DNA of 64,000 nt, from assembly GCA_023250515.1 (NCBI GenBank), contig JAHFAO010000002.1, forward strand, positions 2,361 through 66,360, written 5' to 3'. Positions within the stretch are counted from its first letter, which is position 1. Every line of letters starts with the position of its first letter. Positions 7,632 to 20,970 of this stretch are shown here, one piece after another. The notes beneath the pieces are model-generated. The model ran no database searches. It was not told the origin of the DNA and saw only the letters and a program-made list of their open reading frames with translations. The position numbers were made by a program, and so were the translations under genes. Origin of the DNA: Deltaproteobacteria bacterium (GTDB lineage: Bacteria; Desulfobacterota; Binatia; UBA9968).

Positions 7632-8219
7632 TCACGCCGCGAAATCATAGAGAGAGGCTAACTTTAGGGAGTTACGCATCAGCTCCATCCATGTGTGAAG
7701 ATTTTTGTAGCTGTCTGGGACTTCATACTTGATCACCGTGTAGAGATAGTGGAGCTGGGTAAAGATGGCGATATCAGCAACGGTCATCCGGTCGAAGATA
7801 AACCTCTTTCCAGTAAATAACTGATCCAAGCTCTGAAAATGCACTGCTAGCTCTTTCTCCGCCTCTTTGCGCGCCTCCGCGCTCTCTGCCCGACGCATCA
7901 AGTGCATTGCATGGATCAAAACCTCATCAGACCAGTCCTCCAATATGAGGCAGAGGCCTTTGTCTGAGACCCCGCTAGGGTAGATGGTGTTCTGGGGATA
8001 TTTTTTTTCCAAAAAAGCAGAGATATAGGTAGAATCAATAATGCATTGACCATGGTAGTCCATCACCGGGACTTTTCTTTGACCGGATAATTCGATCAGG
8101 GACTTGCGGTCGTCTTTCTTCACATCGACCACTTCATAGGGAACATCTTTTAACGCAAGAACGATCCTCACCTTCTCGCAAAACATGGAAGTCTGTGACT
8201 GATAAAGTTTTATCGCCAT
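7632..8219 (-). CDS. Glutathione S-transferase / glutaredoxin-2-like protein
   Basis: N-terminal thioredoxin-like 'KLYQSQTSMFCEKVRIVLALKDVPYEVVDV...RKVPVM' followed by a helical C-domain. I use the internal ATG at 8219 (GGAGGA SD 7 nt upstream) rather than the ORF-track start at 8300. Confidence 0.6.
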   Translation of the reverse strand: MAIKLYQSQTSMFCEKVRIVLALKDVPYEVVDVKKDDRKSLIELSGQRKVPVMDYHGQCIIDSTYISAFLEKKYPQNTIYPSGVSDKGLCLILEDWSDEVLIHAMHLMRRAESAEARKEAEKELAVHFQSLDQLFTGKRFIFDRMTVADIAIFTQLHYLYTVIKYEVPDSYKNLHTWMELMRNSLKLASLYDFAA

Positions 8220-15864: not shown

Positions 15865-17928
15865 TTATTCTGCTCTTTCCTCAACCCCGTAGCCCTTCAT
15901 ACCCAGAAACCCATATTTTTCGAGCCGGTGCCTTAAAGATCTGTAATTTATCCCTAGAATTTCAGCAGCTCTCTTTTGCACCCCGTCAGATCTTTTCAAG
16001 GCCCCCAGGAGTAGGCACTTCTCATGGGTCGCGAGTTCTTCATCCAGAGACAACCCTTTTTTGTTGAAGAAGTTATCTGCTCCTTCGGGGGCTGTCTTTT
16101 CAAAGAGTCCAAACTCTTCTTCAATCGGGACTCCTTTGATTTGGGGTGGTAGGTCATCCTCAGTGAGGATATTCTTATTTGTCACCGCCACCGCATGCTC
16201 GATAATGTTCTCCAATTCCCGGATGTTCCCCGGGTAAGCATAGTTCATAAGGCACATAAGCGCCTCACTGGAGATTTCATCGACCTGCTTGTTATGAGCC
16301 GCAGCGAATTTACGAACAAAATAGCTCGTTAGCGCCGGGATATCCTCTTTTCTGCTACGCAGGGGGGGCAGCGTCATCTGAACCACATTGAGACGGTAAA
16401 ATAGGTCTTCCCGAAAGCGCCCCTTCTCCACCTCCTTACGCAGCTCCTTGTTGGTGGCAGAAATCAACCGGACATCGACCTTGATCTGCTTGCTGCCCCC
16501 GACTGGGGTAAAGGACTTCTCTTGGAGGACTCTCAGGAGTTTGACCTGAAGGTGGAGGGGAAGCTCCGCAACTTCATCTAAAAATATGCTGCCCCCATCG
16601 GCCTGCTTGAAAAGCCCGGCATGGTCCGAAACTGCGCCCGTGAAGGCACCACGGACGTGACCAAAGAGTTCGCTCTCAATCAGGTTCTCTGGGATAGCTC
16701 CGCAGTTGACTGCCACAAAGGGTTGACCTCCCCGTGGACCATTAAAATGGATCGCCCGCGCCACCAATTCCTTCCCGGTTCCGCTCTCCCCGGTGATTAA
16801 GACGTTGGTGTCGGTAGCAGCTATTTTTTGAACGAGACGGTAGATCTTATCCACTCCACCCCCTCGGCCTACGACTCCTTCAAAGTGAAACGCGGACTTG
16901 GCCTCGTCACTTTTATCACTAGTCAACTCTCGCTCCCTCGCCCTTCGAATCTCCTCTTCCAAACGCATTTTTTCTTCAAGTTCTCTCTGCCTCGTGACGT
17001 CTTCAAAGATCGAGACAAAACCGATAGTGTGCTCAGTAGCGTCACTCAAAGGCGCCAGAGTCAATCGCAATTGCTTATTACGTCCCTGCGGATCGGCAAA
17101 TGTAATTTCGTCTACGCTGACCCTCTTCGTTCCCTGGAATCCATCGAAATTATACGTGAGACTGGGAAAAATACTGCTTAGTTTTTTTCCCCTAACTGTC
17201 TCTTCTTCAAGCGAGGTAAGGGTTTGGGCCTGAGCGTTGAAGTAGGTGATATGTCCCTTGATATCGGTGGTGGCAACGCCCCTTCCCACGCCTTGAATAA
17301 GGGCCTCCTTTAGGGCCTCCAGTTCAAGGTAGGCTTTTTGTTTCTCTCTGAGGAGGCGTTCCGCTTCATCGAGCTTACGGGCGAGGAATCCGCTCAACCA
17401 GGCAATGATAAGAAAGGTTGGTACGTTAAGCGTCAGACCCATGATAAAGGGATTGAAGGTTGAGATCCAACTTCCAAACAATCGGTAGTGACTCCAGAGA
17501 AGTAGACCGGTATAACAAATGCTGGAGAATCCTGCGGTGAGAAATGCCCCCCGATAGAACAATAAAATAGCACTATTCATTATGGTCAGGTTGTAAAGAA
17601 ATGGGAAGGGGCTCTCGATGCCTCCCGTGAAGAAGACGGTGCCGGTGACCAGGAGGACATCAAAACCTATTTGTGTGTAAGCAAAGAAACCAAGGTTCTT
17701 AATCCAGGGAAGGATAAGGGCCGAGCCTATGGAAATGATATAGGCGGCAATGAGGGGAACCTGAAGGAAACGGGATAACTCAATTCCTCCTTCCCCCTTG
17801 AAATAATTAAAGAGCGCAGTAGAGCCTAGAAAAAAGGAGAGTATGACTACTCTTAGCAAGAGCAGCCATTTGATCCTTTGGGTCAGCTCTCTATTTTCTT
17901 CGTCCAAAGCTCGGTTTCCAAGGTTCAC
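15865..17928 (-). CDS. Membrane-anchored sigma-54-dependent transcriptional activator (PilS-like TM sensor + PAS + AAA+ + Fis-type HTH, no receiver or kinase)
   Basis: 687-aa ORF. Residues about 20-190 form about six hydrophobic helices including 'FFTGGIESPFPFLYNLTI'. These are followed by a coiled coil, a PAS-like region, Walker A 'GESGTGKE', the 'GAFTGA' sigma-54 contact loop and the C-terminal HTH 'AAEILGINYRSLRHRLEKYG'. Confidence 0.85.
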   Translation of the reverse strand: MNLGNRALDEENRELTQRIKWLLLLRVVILSFFLGSTALFNYFKGEGGIELSRFLQVPLIAAYIISIGSALILPWIKNLGFFAYTQIGFDVLLVTGTVFFTGGIESPFPFLYNLTIMNSAILLFYRGAFLTAGFSSICYTGLLLWSHYRLFGSWISTFNPFIMGLTLNVPTFLIIAWLSGFLARKLDEAERLLREKQKAYLELEALKEALIQGVGRGVATTDIKGHITYFNAQAQTLTSLEEETVRGKKLSSIFPSLTYNFDGFQGTKRVSVDEITFADPQGRNKQLRLTLAPLSDATEHTIGFVSIFEDVTRQRELEEKMRLEEEIRRARERELTSDKSDEAKSAFHFEGVVGRGGGVDKIYRLVQKIAATDTNVLITGESGTGKELVARAIHFNGPRGGQPFVAVNCGAIPENLIESELFGHVRGAFTGAVSDHAGLFKQADGGSIFLDEVAELPLHLQVKLLRVLQEKSFTPVGGSKQIKVDVRLISATNKELRKEVEKGRFREDLFYRLNVVQMTLPPLRSRKEDIPALTSYFVRKFAAAHNKQVDEISSEALMCLMNYAYPGNIRELENIIEHAVAVTNKNILTEDDLPPQIKGVPIEEEFGLFEKTAPEGADNFFNKKGLSLDEELATHEKCLLLGALKRSDGVQKRAAEILGINYRSLRHRLEKYGFLGMKGYGVEERAE

Positions 17929-17956
17929 TGAAACATGAAGCGTGGCACGTTAACTC

Positions 17957-19177
17957 TTATGAGATTAAGGAGCCCATTTGAAAGATCGGCAGATACATTG
18001 AAATCACCAATCCTCCAAGGATAACCCCCAGCACCACCATGATCACTGGCTCCATAAGGGCCGTGAGGTTGGCCACGGCGTTATCCACCTCCTCCTCATA
18101 GAACTCCCCTACTTTTTTAAGCATGGCGTCCAGGGCGCCTGTGTTCTCTCCGATATTAACCATATGGCAAACCATGGGGGGAAAAATTTTACTTTCCGCT
18201 AACGGTTCTGATACGGTTTTTCCTTGGCTAATGCTGACACGGGCATCCATAACGGCCTTTTCGACCACCTTATTCCCCGCAGTTCTAGCCGTTATCGCCA
18301 GGCCATCCAGGATGGGTACCCCAGAGCTTAGAAGGATCGACATGTTCTGTGAAAAACGGGCCACCGCAACCTTGCGGAGAAGGTCTCCCACTATCGGAAG
18401 CCTAAGTAAGACACTGTCAATCCTGAACTTTCCCTGCTCCGTTTTATAGTACATACGGATGGCAACAACGATTGCGGCGATGACCCCCAACAGGTAGGGG
18501 AAATAGGCGCGAAACCAGTTACTTATGTTGATCGTTATCTGAGTGGGAGCGGGGAGGGCTTTACCCATACCCCCATAAAGCTCAGCGAATACGGGGATGA
18601 CATAGATGAGTAAGACCGCCACTACCGCCACCGCCACTACAATGATCGTGCAGGGATAGATCATTGCGCCTTTCACCTTTTTCTTGAGCTTATTGGCCTT
18701 CTCTATGAAAAGGGCAATTCGGTTGAGGATGGTGTTCAAGACACCACCCACCTCCCCCGCTGCGACCATATTGACATAGAGATCATCGAAGGCCTTTGGA
18801 TGTTTCTTCAGGGCATCGGCCAGTGTAAGGCCCCCCTCGACATCTTCCTTGATCGTACGGATGGTGTTTCGGAAAACCTTATTTTCTGTCTGCTGGCTCA
18901 GAATATCGAGGCATTGAACGATGGGGAGCCCAGCATCGATCATAGTAGCGAATTGACGGGTGAAGATCATTACATCATAAGGCTTGATCTTTGCCCCGAA
19001 TCCAGGGATGGTGATTTCCTTCTTTAACCCCTTCCCTTTTTCCTGAACCCGCGCAGGTATCGGTCTGATCCTTCGGCTCCTAAGATGCGCAAAAACTGCC
19101 TCCTGGCTGACAGCTTCCAGCTCGCCCTTGAGGACCATTCCCTGTGCAGTTCTTCCTTCCCACACGAATACAGGCAT
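17957..19177 (-). CDS. pilC: Type IV pilus platform protein PilC (GspF family)
   Basis: Two GspF repeats ('FTRQFATMIDAGLPIVQCL', 'RFSQNMSILLSSGVPILDGL') and three TM segments. ATG at 19177 has an AAGGAAG SD and is preferred over the TTG at 19198. Confidence 0.9.
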   Translation of the reverse strand: MPVFVWEGRTAQGMVLKGELEAVSQEAVFAHLRSRRIRPIPARVQEKGKGLKKEITIPGFGAKIKPYDVMIFTRQFATMIDAGLPIVQCLDILSQQTENKVFRNTIRTIKEDVEGGLTLADALKKHPKAFDDLYVNMVAAGEVGGVLNTILNRIALFIEKANKLKKKVKGAMIYPCTIIVVAVAVVAVLLIYVIPVFAELYGGMGKALPAPTQITINISNWFRAYFPYLLGVIAAIVVAIRMYYKTEQGKFRIDSVLLRLPIVGDLLRKVAVARFSQNMSILLSSGVPILDGLAITARTAGNKVVEKAVMDARVSISQGKTVSEPLAESKIFPPMVCHMVNIGENTGALDAMLKKVGEFYEEEVDNAVANLTALMEPVIMVVLGVILGGLVISMYLPIFQMGSLIS

Positions 19178-19242
19178 AAAAGCTTCCTTTTTATTCAATA
19201 GCTAATGACACTATTCCCTTGTTCCTTCACCACTTAAATTAT

Positions 19243-20970
19243 TTAAATGCCCAGAGAAAAAACCGATCCAAACCCTTTGTCCGAATCTGTTACCCGAACC
19301 GTCTCTTCAATAGTCGTAAGCCCCTCACGGAGTTTTCGAATCGCACTCATTCTAAGAGTGCTCGTTCCCAGCTTCACCGCCTCTCGCTTCAGATCACCAG
19401 CGGAGACCCCCTTCAGGATTAATTCCTTCAGAGCGTCATGCATGACCATCACCTCGTAGATCGCGACTCGTCCTTTATACCCTGTTTTGTTACAGTTAGG
19501 ACAACCTTTTCCGTGAAAGGTGGGAAAACCTGCGCTCACATCTGCGGGATCGACGCCGATGTTGACCAGGGCCTCTGGGTTAACCTCCGCCGGCTCCTTG
19601 CAACGGGCGCAGATCTTGCGCACCAATCTCTGCGCGGCAATAATATTGATCGACGAAGTAAGCAGAAAAGGCTCTACCCCCATATTGATCAGGCGGTCTA
19701 CAGTAGAGGGGGCATCGTTGGTATGGAGAGTACTGAGTACCAGATGGCCGGTTAGGGCCGCCTTAACCGCGATTTGAGCTGTTTCCAGGTCGCGGATCTC
19801 TCCCACCATGATAATGTCCGGATCTTGACGGAGAAAGGATCTGAGACAGGCAGCAAAATTAAGACCTATCTCATCGCGAACCTGTACCTGGTTAATCCCC
19901 ATGAGATTATACTCGACCGGATCTTCAGCGGTAGAAATGTTAACGTCTGGTTTGTTCAGTTCTGAAAGGGCAGAGTAAAGGGTGGTCGATTTGCCGCTAC
20001 CCGTAGGACCGGTGATAAGGATCATCCCGTAGGGCTTATGGATCGCCTCCTGAAAGTCCCTAATGGTTTTTGTATCGAAGCCGAGCTTGGACATATCCAG
20101 TTGGAGGTTGGATTTGTCGAGGAGCCGCATGACGACCTTTTCTCCGAAAAGGGTGGGCAGCACGGAGACCCGAATATCCAGCTCTTGACCGCGACCCATC
20201 TTCAGCTTGATCCGCCCATCTTGAGTCAGTCGCCTCTCGGCGATGTCGAGGTCAGCCATTACCTTGAGCCGTGAGACTAAAGGATTTTTGAGTCTCAGGG
20301 GAGGATTCATGATATCATAGAGGACCCCATCCACGCGAAACCGTATCCGGAAGATCTTTTCGTATGGCTCGATGTGAATGTCGCTCGCCCCGCGTTTTGC
20401 CGCATCGGCCAAAACGGCATTGACCAAGGTGACCACAGGGGCCTCCATGGTGGCCTCTTTGAGCTCTTGGAGGTCGACTTGCTCCTCACCATGGATAACC
20501 TCCATCTCGTTATCGCCTAACTTTTTCAGAACTTCGTCGTAACTGACCGCACCGAAGCGCTTCTCCAGTAGCTTCTTTATCTCCGAACTAGAGGCCAGAA
20601 CAACCTTTACCCCGTAGCCAGTGATGAACTTGATCTCATTGACCGCCATCAGATCTGTCGGGTCGGTCATGGCCACAGTCAAAGTGGAGCCAAGGAGTTT
20701 AAGAGGGATGATCTGATGTTTCTGGACCAGGTGGGTGGGAACTAGGCTAAAAATCGAATCCTCGATCTCGGCATTATCTAGTTCGACCTTTTCGATGCCG
20801 AACTGTCCGGCGAGAAATTGCGTGAGCTCGTCCTCAGTAGTAAAGCCAAGGCGAACCAGCTCCTGGACAAGGTTTGAGCCATTGGTCTTCTCCTTTTCCA
20901 GGGCGTCGTTGAGTTGCTCGCGGGTGATGACCTTTCCCCGGACCAAGAGCTCACCTATACGAGGCTCCAT
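19243..20970 (-). CDS. pilB: Type IV pilus assembly ATPase PilB (GspE family)
   Basis: N-terminal T2SSE_N domain, Walker A 'GPTGSGKSTT', 'GEIRD', 'TGHLVLSTLHTN' and a tetracysteine motif (CARC...CPNC). Confidence 0.9.
   Translation of the reverse strand: MEPRIGELLVRGKVITREQLNDALEKEKTNGSNLVQELVRLGFTTEDELTQFLAGQFGIEKVELDNAEIEDSIFSLVPTHLVQKHQIIPLKLLGSTLTVAMTDPTDLMAVNEIKFITGYGVKVVLASSSEIKKLLEKRFGAVSYDEVLKKLGDNEMEVIHGEEQVDLQELKEATMEAPVVTLVNAVLADAAKRGASDIHIEPYEKIFRIRFRVDGVLYDIMNPPLRLKNPLVSRLKVMADLDIAERRLTQDGRIKLKMGRGQELDIRVSVLPTLFGEKVVMRLLDKSNLQLDMSKLGFDTKTIRDFQEAIHKPYGMILITGPTGSGKSTTLYSALSELNKPDVNISTAEDPVEYNLMGINQVQVRDEIGLNFAACLRSFLRQDPDIIMVGEIRDLETAQIAVKAALTGHLVLSTLHTNDAPSTVDRLINMGVEPFLLTSSINIIAAQRLVRKICARCKEPAEVNPEALVNIGVDPADVSAGFPTFHGKGCPNCNKTGYKGRVAIYEVMVMHDALKELILKGVSAGDLKREAVKLGTSTLRMSAIRKLREGLTTIEETVRVTDSDKGFGSVFSLGI

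Follow-up and report, generated by a model that had tools for sequence, protein, structure and literature searches.

The DNA analysed here is a 64,000-nucleotide stretch of contig JAHFAO010000002.1 from a Deltaproteobacteria bacterium of the Binatia (hereafter the window, whose numbering is used throughout). On its minus strand, among genes for type IV pilus biogenesis, lies a gene denoted X, the predicted product of which joins the membrane and PAS portion of a PilS-type sensor kinase to the AAA+ and DNA-binding portion of a PilR-type sigma-54 activator in one polypeptide. The gene and the domains of its product are as follows.

15865–17928, minus strand: fused PilS–PilR-like gene X, with a GTG start, encoding 687 residues in the order 6TM_PilS, PAS, signalling helix with short tether, sigma-54 AAA+ and Fis-type helix-turn-helix (HTH).
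17353–17901, minus strand: PilS-like six-helix membrane domain of X, residues 10–192 (Pfam PF25323, hydropathy, AlphaFold helices).
16981–17310, minus strand: PAS domain of X, residues 207–316 (Pfam PAS, PAS_9 and PAS_4; AlphaFold β-sheet at 217–310).
16864–16980, minus strand: junction of X, residues 317–355, the site of the missing PilS DHp and CA domains and of the missing PilR REC domain (BLAST, consensus, AlphaFold).
16135–16863, minus strand: sigma-54 interaction AAA+ domain of X with its lid, residues 356–598 (Pfam, PDB sequence matches, Foldseek).
15913–16029, minus strand: Fis-type HTH of X, residues 634–672 (Pfam HTH_8, E = 7e-11).

The initial annotation of this DNA, made from its letters alone, had described a 687-residue open reading frame (ORF) at this position. 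Its coordinates and length stand, and the strings it quoted are present, including DVLLVTGTVFFTGGIESPFPFLYNLTIMN at residues 90–118; the minus strand had been left unstated. A database protein, P0083, is identical to X. The 6TM_PilS model matches residues 10–192 over nearly its whole length (E = 1.3e-19, model positions 2–188 of 189), Sigma54_activat matches residues 356–518 (E = 1.6e-71) and AAA_lid_14 residues 524–598. The Walker A motif GESGTGKE (from residue 380), the Walker B motif FLDE and the GAFTGA loop (from residue 427) are all intact. The AAA+ domain finds NifA, FleQ, ZraR and NtrC1 among PDB sequences (E values of 1e-70 to 1e-80), and in Foldseek comparisons it superposes on the AAA+ domains of LuxO, FlrC and FleQ with a target-normalized TM-score of about 0.9. 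The 6TM–PAS half has no PDB sequence match, and the best 50 Foldseek matches were all AAA+ domains. Scores against the named NCBIfam equivalogs (NtrC, NifA, PrdR, AtoC, ZraR and others) all lie far under their cut-offs, the best being PrdR, which reaches 389 bits where 795 are required. Judged by its AAA+ and HTH sequences, X belongs to the bacterial enhancer-binding proteins (EBPs), that is, the sigma-54 activators; with membrane segments and a DNA-binding domain in one ORF, it is also a predicted transmembrane transcription regulator. HisKA, HATPase_c and Response_reg have no Pfam match in X, even at E ≤ 1.

The fusion point was mapped against two canonical loci, L067 and L068; among non-fused proteins, their PilS kinases come closest to the N-terminal half of X. 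By BLAST, residues 3–322 of X align to PilS residues 1–333 (29–33% identity) and residues 333–678 align to PilR residues 130–458 (47–54% identity), leaving about 10 residues of X outside both alignments. The PilS alignment ends at residue 333, ahead of the H-box, and the PilR alignment begins at residue 130, past the receiver (REC) domain. Because the two abut with so few residues to spare, X corresponds to PilS minus its DHp and catalytic domains joined to PilR minus its receiver. The likeness to PilS stops after the helix that normally enters the H-box (FEDVTRQRELEEKM versus FQDLTHIREMEEEM), where X has no histidine. The junction itself consists of a conserved helix at about residues 312–340, bearing an ELEEKVRLEEE motif, and then a variable, low-confidence tether of about 15 residues; the predicted local distance difference test (pLDDT) score of the AlphaFold model falls below 50 at residues 337–345. 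A degenerate receiver or kinase hidden in the linker at residues 320–360, for which the initial annotation had proposed a check, is ruled out by the Pfam scan (E ≤ 1), by the roughly 10 spare residues and by the modelled helix with its short disordered tether.

The AlphaFold model of X, built from an alignment of 79 fused homologues only, has a mean pLDDT of 82. Its membrane part comprises helices at residues 2–43, 45–75, 79–100, 110–151 and 159–213 (pLDDT 80–93). Helix 110–151 spans two hydrophobic stretches that flank an invariant Y-R-G at 125–127, and helix 159–213 passes unbroken into the PAS domain; the segment at first described as a coiled coil is this last membrane helix continuing into PAS. 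The PAS β-sheet (217–310) is followed by the helix at 312–340, the low-confidence linker of about 15 residues, the AAA+ domain, a floppy linker (600–616) and the HTH. Hydrophobic segments are confined to residues 22–180, the hydropathy maximum past residue 210 being 0.88, and the membrane-integral nature of the N terminus is borne out by three lines (PF25323, hydropathy and the modelled helices). Positive charges are found in a K/R-rich N terminus, in short cytoplasmic turns (K77 and R126) and in a K/R-rich segment past the last helix. Because this distribution agrees with the positive-inside rule, it fits a predicted topology of cytoplasmic N terminus, six helices and cytoplasmic C terminus. 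Polar or otherwise distinctive positions of the membrane domain (R26, Q86, D90, T101-G102, S106-P107-F108, Y112 and Y139) are invariant or nearly so in the 79 fused proteins, and consensus comparison finds these intramembrane polar residues common to canonical PilS kinases as well, which argues that the membrane domain of X signals as that of PilS does. In the PAS domain, the conserved residues are N231, G303 and D310.

The same architecture recurs widely. A full-length search with X returned at least 120 clusters (at 90% identity) of 652–725 residues, with the same domain set and 66–100% identical to it; those listed carry the labels Candidatus Binatia, ‘Deltaproteobacteria bacterium’ metagenome-assembled genomes (MAGs) and, as JGI KO label, ‘PilR’. 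Altogether more than 200 protein clusters carry the fusion. A scan of species-representative genomes, made with DNA patterns specific to the main family, found 60 loci, nearly all in Binatia-type MAGs, with about 45 complete genes, every one of them fused. Among 71 family members scanned with Pfam, Sigma54_activat and HTH_8 were found in all 71, 6TM_PilS in 70 and PAS in 65, and no receiver or kinase family was among the families listed for them; a few members, such as P0234 and P0384, have no detectable PAS domain and keep 6TM_PilS. The absence of a kinase core and receiver, as originally claimed, is thereby borne out for X and its relatives by the Pfam scans and the junction mapping.

The NCBI names attached to these genomes vary. 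Near-identical Binatia-type loci occur in MAGs labelled Planctomycetales, Syntrophobacter, Chloroflexota, Verrucomicrobiia, Udaeobacter, Eisenbacteria and Acidiferrales (within L004–L063), which are probably binning or naming errors and not true spread. The fusion has been kept throughout Binatia and, it appears, in some other lineages, and the NCBI labels of the MAGs, Deltaproteobacteria among them, are inconsistent.

The N-terminal half of X was also searched against 1.8 billion representative proteins, and the nearest 150 were classified: 117 are PilS-type kinases and 11 carry an AAA+ module. Eight of these 11 are full-length fused clusters that are 33–36% identical to X in the N-terminal half, and the three distant fused clusters that were looked up also show the order pilB-(pilT)-pilC-X-pilin. 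A profile of the distant members retrieved roughly 90 further fused clusters and then ordinary REC-AAA-HTH proteins. The latter, which carry the JGI label PilR, are the nearest non-fused relatives of the output half and are 58–64% identical to the C-terminal half of one fused protein. In an unbootstrapped neighbour-joining tree of the AAA+–HTH module, these REC-type PilRs nest among the fused clades. As a lead only, this interleaving suggests that the output module is derived from PilR and hints that fusion or fission happened more than once. One further database protein, P0204 (4799 residues), was hit by the PAS portion of the query at 30 different places and is a giant multi-PAS protein.

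The genes of the window that surround X lie on the same strand in the order recO, ppdK, pilB, pilC, X, type IV pilin and GT-C-type glycosyltransferase, the closest of them being these.

19243–20970, minus strand: pilB (T2SSE, by Pfam), upstream of pilC.
17957–19198, minus strand: pilC (T2SSF, by Pfam), directly upstream of X.
15142–15537, minus strand: type IV major pilin gene (Pfam N_methyl; Shine-Dalgarno sequence AAGGAG; orthologues).
12985–15072, minus strand: GT-C-type membrane glycosyltransferase of 695 residues, TMEM260-like, directly downstream of the pilin gene.

The prepilin reads MNRLRLRAEGG followed by FTLIELLVV..., with E5 and P22 in the mature part and a Thr/Ser-rich C-terminal part (NPTNNVTTTATDGTSTFTLTA). 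Fused loci share the layout (ppdK/aroE)-pilB-(pilT)-pilC-X-pilin, and the canonical loci read pilC-pilS-pilR-pilin (L067) and aroE-pilB-pilT-pilC-pilS-pilR (L068, Nitrospiria); this synteny confirms that X occupies the slot of pilS and pilR between pilC and the pilin gene. The comparison with named genera fared unevenly: pilSR sits between pilC and pilA in Geobacter and Myxococcus, but is not known to do so in Pseudomonas aeruginosa, so that the parallel originally drawn would hold for the first two only. Separate pilS and pilR genes, which could have taken over control of pilA, were looked for: no other EBP, PilS-like or PilR-like ORF occurs in the 64-kb window, and the flanks of related loci, about 790 kb in all, have no kinase core or receiver beside a fused gene. 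The only exception in the flank search, L061, belongs to a Gemmatimonadales MAG and is an ordinary pilS–pilR locus.

Three candidate regulatory features lie in the DNA that separates X from the pilin gene.

15799–15834, minus strand: candidate upstream activator sequence with two TTTGTCA-type boxes, TTTGACAC at 15827–15834 and TTTTGTCAC at 15799–15807 (alignment of 41 loci).
15737–15764, minus strand: IHF-like site or sites, flanked by the boxes on one side and the promoter on the other, TAACTAGCTGGTT at 15752–15764 (the positional homologue, two mismatches) and TAAGAAGTTTATT at 15737–15749 (one mismatch).
15665–15680, minus strand: sigma-54 (−24/−12) promoter TGGCCCGGTTTTTGCT (TGGCCC-N5-TTGCT) upstream of the pilin gene, with one mismatch to TGGCAC-N5-TTGCW.

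Matches to the sigma-54 consensus with up to two mismatches number 29 in the window against 26 expected, which is the level of chance, and the weight of the promoter site therefore comes from its position and conservation. A GG-N10-GC element with up to three mismatches to the consensus precedes the pilin motif at 41 of the 42 loci that have a pilin gene, mostly 170–210 bp past the X stop codon and 175–235 bp ahead of the pilin motif. In an alignment of 41 loci, TTTGTCA-type boxes recur at three constant distances past the X stop codon (+7, +32 and +60); the hexamer TGACAA/TTGTCA occurs at fixed positions in 30 of the 41, against 3.2 expected (z = 15). An IHF-like match (up to one mismatch to the consensus used, YAANNNNTTGATW) lies around +100 in 21 of the 41 loci, compared with 3.3 on average and 9 at most after shuffling, and such sites mostly fall about 83–97 bp upstream of the −24 element. 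The bases around the conserved boxes and sites have diverged freely among loci. By its sequence, the X–pilin intergenic DNA has the classical layout of enhancer, IHF bend and −24/−12 promoter. The PilR sites of P. aeruginosa reportedly have a TGTC core.

Comparison of X with five orthologues gave ratios of non-synonymous to synonymous substitution rates (dN/dS) of 0.08–0.16 overall. Where dS was unsaturated, the values by module were 0.08–0.24 for the six-helix domain, 0.07–0.17 for PAS and 0.04–0.09 for AAA+; every module tested is under purifying selection. Single decayed alleles do occur. The orthologue at 8001–10022 of L001, L002 and L003, which represent one organism assembled three times (with contigs of 4.0 and 6.17 Mb among them), has an in-frame stop (Gln to stop) in PAS that splits it into a 278-residue 6TM/PAS ORF and a 392-residue AAA+–HTH ORF, and a Transposase_mut gene lies between this orthologue and the pilin gene. 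These loci are either decaying or a natural soluble truncation. In L059 (CAWERH010000057.1, 5893–6705) the ORF extends for about 224 residues beyond the N-terminal motif and tblastn recovers the AAA+ part in three separate pieces, so that this orthologue appears disrupted, by a frameshift or by a long-read assembly error.

The initial proposal of a direct fusion of a PilS-type six-helix and PAS sensor to a sigma-54 AAA+/HTH output is upheld by the domain scans, the junction mapping, the synteny and the conservation of promoter and enhancer. Because X lies in the pilS–pilR slot beside a conserved sigma-54 pilin promoter and is kept across Binatia, it probably controls pilin transcription from the membrane. 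The reading that we favour, with a probability of roughly 0.6 for the whole, is that X is a membrane-integral, one-component PilSR that activates pilA in a sigma-54-dependent manner without His–Asp phosphotransfer. Its parts differ in strength. Sequence and setting make it very likely that X is the pilA activator; that X acts while membrane-bound is reasonably probable; and the analogy with PilS puts unassembled pilin at about even odds as its signal. For the sign of regulation, we infer that high pilin would mean off.

In this favoured scheme, the HTH would bind the TTTGTCA boxes that start a few bases past the X stop codon, IHF-assisted bending of the DNA would bring X to the sigma-54 RNA polymerase at the TGGCCC-N5-TTGCT promoter, and the AAA+ domains would form a ring in which ATP hydrolysis remodels the sigma-54 holoenzyme and opens the pilin promoter. 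With the phosphotransfer core missing, the signal must pass mechanically within one chain, and the relay of membrane domain, PAS and helix may gate ring assembly or ATPase activity directly; a possible analogy is NtrC1 and DctD, in which receiver and coiled coil keep the AAA+ domains dimeric and inactive. By analogy with PilS, the likeliest input would be the inner-membrane pool of unassembled pilin. According to passages of PMC6058289 and PMC11960060 that cite Kilmury & Burrows 2016, PilS of P. aeruginosa contacts PilA directly through its six membrane segments, PilR activity falls when pilin is in excess in the membrane, and PilR and sigma-54 activate pilA.

The order membrane–PAS–AAA+–HTH would set the DNA-binding end of X furthest from the bilayer. 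Since the enhancer starts almost directly past the end of X and both neighbours of X, pilC and pilA, also encode membrane proteins, co-translational insertion may, speculatively, keep the target DNA near the membrane and within reach. FtsH and FtsK/SpoIIIE are membrane-anchored rings of the AAA+ or RecA type, and the existence of anchored rings such as FtsH makes a tethered X hexamer physically plausible. More tentative, and somewhat short of an even chance, is the fuller picture in which X-type sensor dimers read pilin in the bilayer and license or block a membrane-anchored AAA+ hexamer that opens the pilin promoter at the membrane, an arrangement that may have arisen more than once.

Compared with PilS–PilR, X has in common the 6TM_PilS and PAS sensor, the sigma-54 AAA+ and HTH_8 output, the slot between pilC and pilin and the intramembrane polar residues, and its apparent target is similar, a −24/−12 pilin promoter with upstream TGTC-containing boxes. 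It differs in having neither the DHp and CA domains of PilS (about 230 residues) nor the REC domain of PilR (about 130 residues), and in tethering the activator to the membrane. The AAA+ domains of the NtrC1, DctD and NtrC4 class are 41–48% identical to that of X, with target-normalized Foldseek TM-scores of up to 0.89 when the AAA+ domains are compared in isolation, and the conserved helix of X precedes AAA+ at the place where those proteins have a regulatory coiled coil, although their upstream module is a phosphorylatable receiver and that of X is a membrane–PAS unit. In PspF–PspA and RedR2–BtdS, as would be the case for X, how active a sigma-54 activator is depends on the state of the inner membrane; there the activator is soluble and coupled through a separate protein, whereas in X the membrane module is covalently attached. 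ToxR, CadC and TcpP also unite a membrane sensor and a DNA-binding activator in one polypeptide and require the target DNA to reach the membrane. Each of these has a single membrane helix, senses in the periplasm, binds DNA through an OmpR-type winged helix and works at sigma-70 promoters, whereas X has six helices, a predicted intramembrane or cytoplasmic sensor, an ATP-driven AAA+ ring and sigma-54; X has no Pfam match to Trans_reg_C and is hence not homologous to ToxR or CadC.

A precedent, which the initial annotation missed, is Rsp of Neisseria gonorrhoeae, a fusion of nps (pilS) and npa (pilR) (Carrick, Fyfe & Davies 2000) that by description combines, as X does, a PilS membrane N terminus and a PilR C terminus in one ORF. 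A 2023 survey of transmembrane transcription regulators (PMC10269533) lists Rsp among them as a PilS–PilR chimera. Rsp is described as a remnant in a species with a sigma-70 (RpoD) pilE promoter and sits after parC, not beside the pilin gene; the X family, in contrast, is conserved over a class-level lineage, is under purifying selection and retains an intact sigma-54 enhancer and promoter.

Several observations weigh against a membrane-bound activator of pilA. A hexamer of X would carry 36 membrane helices while reaching a promoter, which is unprecedented for the EBP family; the EBPs with solved structures found among the PDB matches are all soluble, and in a survey of Clostridiales EBPs (PMC6615313) most sensory domains have no membrane regions. 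Rsp, the only described analogue of X, is reported to play no part in the transcription of pilE (PMC6528607). All genomes that carry the family come from uncultured bacteria. Within the window, the GTG start of X has no strong or recognizable Shine-Dalgarno sequence, the second and third TTTGTCA-type boxes are present without the +7 box, and the positional IHF-like site carries its two mismatches. The z-scores of the motifs overstate independence because the loci compared are related. A search for the RpoN box found no rpoN in the window, a result that is uninformative for the whole genome.

Two other accounts retain X as a sigma-54 activator, and both appear unlikely. In the first, the six helices park an inactive X at the membrane, and the active form is a soluble PAS–AAA+–HTH or AAA+–HTH product of proteolysis or of an internal start. 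A precedent for sequestration at the membrane is RedR2–BtdS, in which a bacterial EBP is kept inactive there by a partner protein (PMC10084136). Proteolysis controls some membrane transcription regulators, the reference list of PMC10269533 citing studies of TcpP degradation and of an FtsH-regulated Staphylococcus aureus factor. The variable, low-confidence tether at the junction could be a cleavage site, but no protease gene is conserved at the locus; nor is there a conserved internal methionine, M321 of the window protein being valine in the consensus. N-terminally truncated EBPs are often constitutively active, and the nonsense codon of L001–L003 leaves a separate AAA+–HTH ORF that gene callers accept. 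This allele, however, coincides with the transposase between X and pilin, and on account of that transposase the locus looks to be decaying. The six-helix domain, moreover, keeps the signalling polar residues of PilS and a dN/dS of 0.08–0.24, which is beyond the needs of an anchor.

In the second account, with about as little in its favour, X activates pilA from the membrane in response to another signal, received through PAS (redox, a metabolite or another ligand) or as a non-pilin cue at the six helices, which would serve mainly to localize or dimerize the protein. Pilin binding by X is proposed by analogy, the PAS domain is kept in 65 of 71 members with conserved N231, G303 and D310, and the membrane domain of PilS has been linked to polar targeting (by the title of Ethier & Boyd 2000, as cited in PMC6058289). 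Against this, P0234 and P0384 have retained 6TM_PilS without a detectable PAS domain, and the strict adjacency to pilin, the PilS-type intramembrane polar residues and E5 and P22 of the pilin all fit pilin sensing. That X is a functionless pilS–pilR relic like Rsp, which passages of PMC6528607 and PMC10269533 cite as having been described in 2000 as a remnant, or that pilA answers to another system, is highly improbable despite the nonsense codon of L001–L003 and the apparent disruption in L059, as about 45 species-level genomes and more than 200 protein clusters have X whole and undamaged, each module shows a dN/dS of about 0.1, the Walker A, Walker B and GAFTGA motifs are preserved, and a conserved sigma-54 promoter, boxes and IHF-like site adjoin X with no canonical pilSR nearby; remnant or pseudogene status of the family was rejected on conservation and dN/dS, single decayed alleles notwithstanding.

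The full-text literature searched gave no account of a conserved membrane-integral EBP family or of a functional PilS–PilR fusion family, an absence that is not proof. PilS–PilR, Rsp, the Pfam model 6TM_PilS and database entries under generic names were already known. Current labels such as ‘PilR response regulator’, ‘ZraR’ and ‘sigma-54 interacting regulator’ hide the architecture of the X family. In the literature searched, EBPs are treated as soluble cytoplasmic machines that are connected with the membrane in every case by a separate kinase or partner protein, and a polytopic family of AAA+ activators raises the question of how its hexamer assembles and reaches a promoter. If the favoured reading is correct, X would be the first membrane-integral bacterial EBP and a natural, phosphorylation-free read-out of PilS transmembrane signalling. 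It would represent a minimal form of pilin autoregulation, in which sensing and signalling by the PilS membrane domain, a long-standing question, could be tested without kinase–phosphatase bookkeeping, and an example of the collapse of a two-component into a one-component system by loss of exactly the phosphotransfer core. The family also recasts gonococcal Rsp, in that such a fusion is not bound to be a dead end.

Some further features of the transcription unit were noted. The gap between pilC and X is 28 nt (17929–17956, minus strand), and a 3-codon mini-ORF (ATG TTT CAG TGA) overlaps the GTG of X; this spacing, the mini-ORF and the missing Shine-Dalgarno sequence suggest that X is translationally coupled or expressed at a low level. 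For the pilin gene, the most probable start is the ATG at 15537, which has the AAGGAG Shine-Dalgarno sequence and agrees with all orthologues; the ORF list places the start at a GTG at 15621 (15142–15621). The latter start would add a Lys/Glu-rich extension of 28 residues (15538–15621, minus strand), which is a translated purine tract. This near-pure purine tract of about 55 nt (GGTGGGAAAGAAGGGAAGAAAGAAAAAAAGGAAAGAAAGAACAAAGAAAGGAG; about 15545–15600, minus strand) lies ahead of the pilin start codon in the 5′ leader of the pilin mRNA. Over 40 nt of the leader, the purine fraction is 0.97 in the window and L038, 0.93 in L016 and 0.55–0.82 in the other 39 orthologous leaders.

The GT-C glycosyltransferase of the window has, besides its TMEM260-like match, a weaker match to PMT_2 (under the Pfam cut-off) and weak TPR matches. 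Other GT-C enzymes are encoded past the pilin gene elsewhere, namely YfhO in L001 (12437–14839, directly after it) and TMTC_DUF1736/TPR in L065 (11217–14112, with two genes between). The differing GT-C enzymes downstream, together with the Thr/Ser-rich C-terminal part of the pilin, suggest O-glycosylation of the pilin by interchangeable enzymes of this type.

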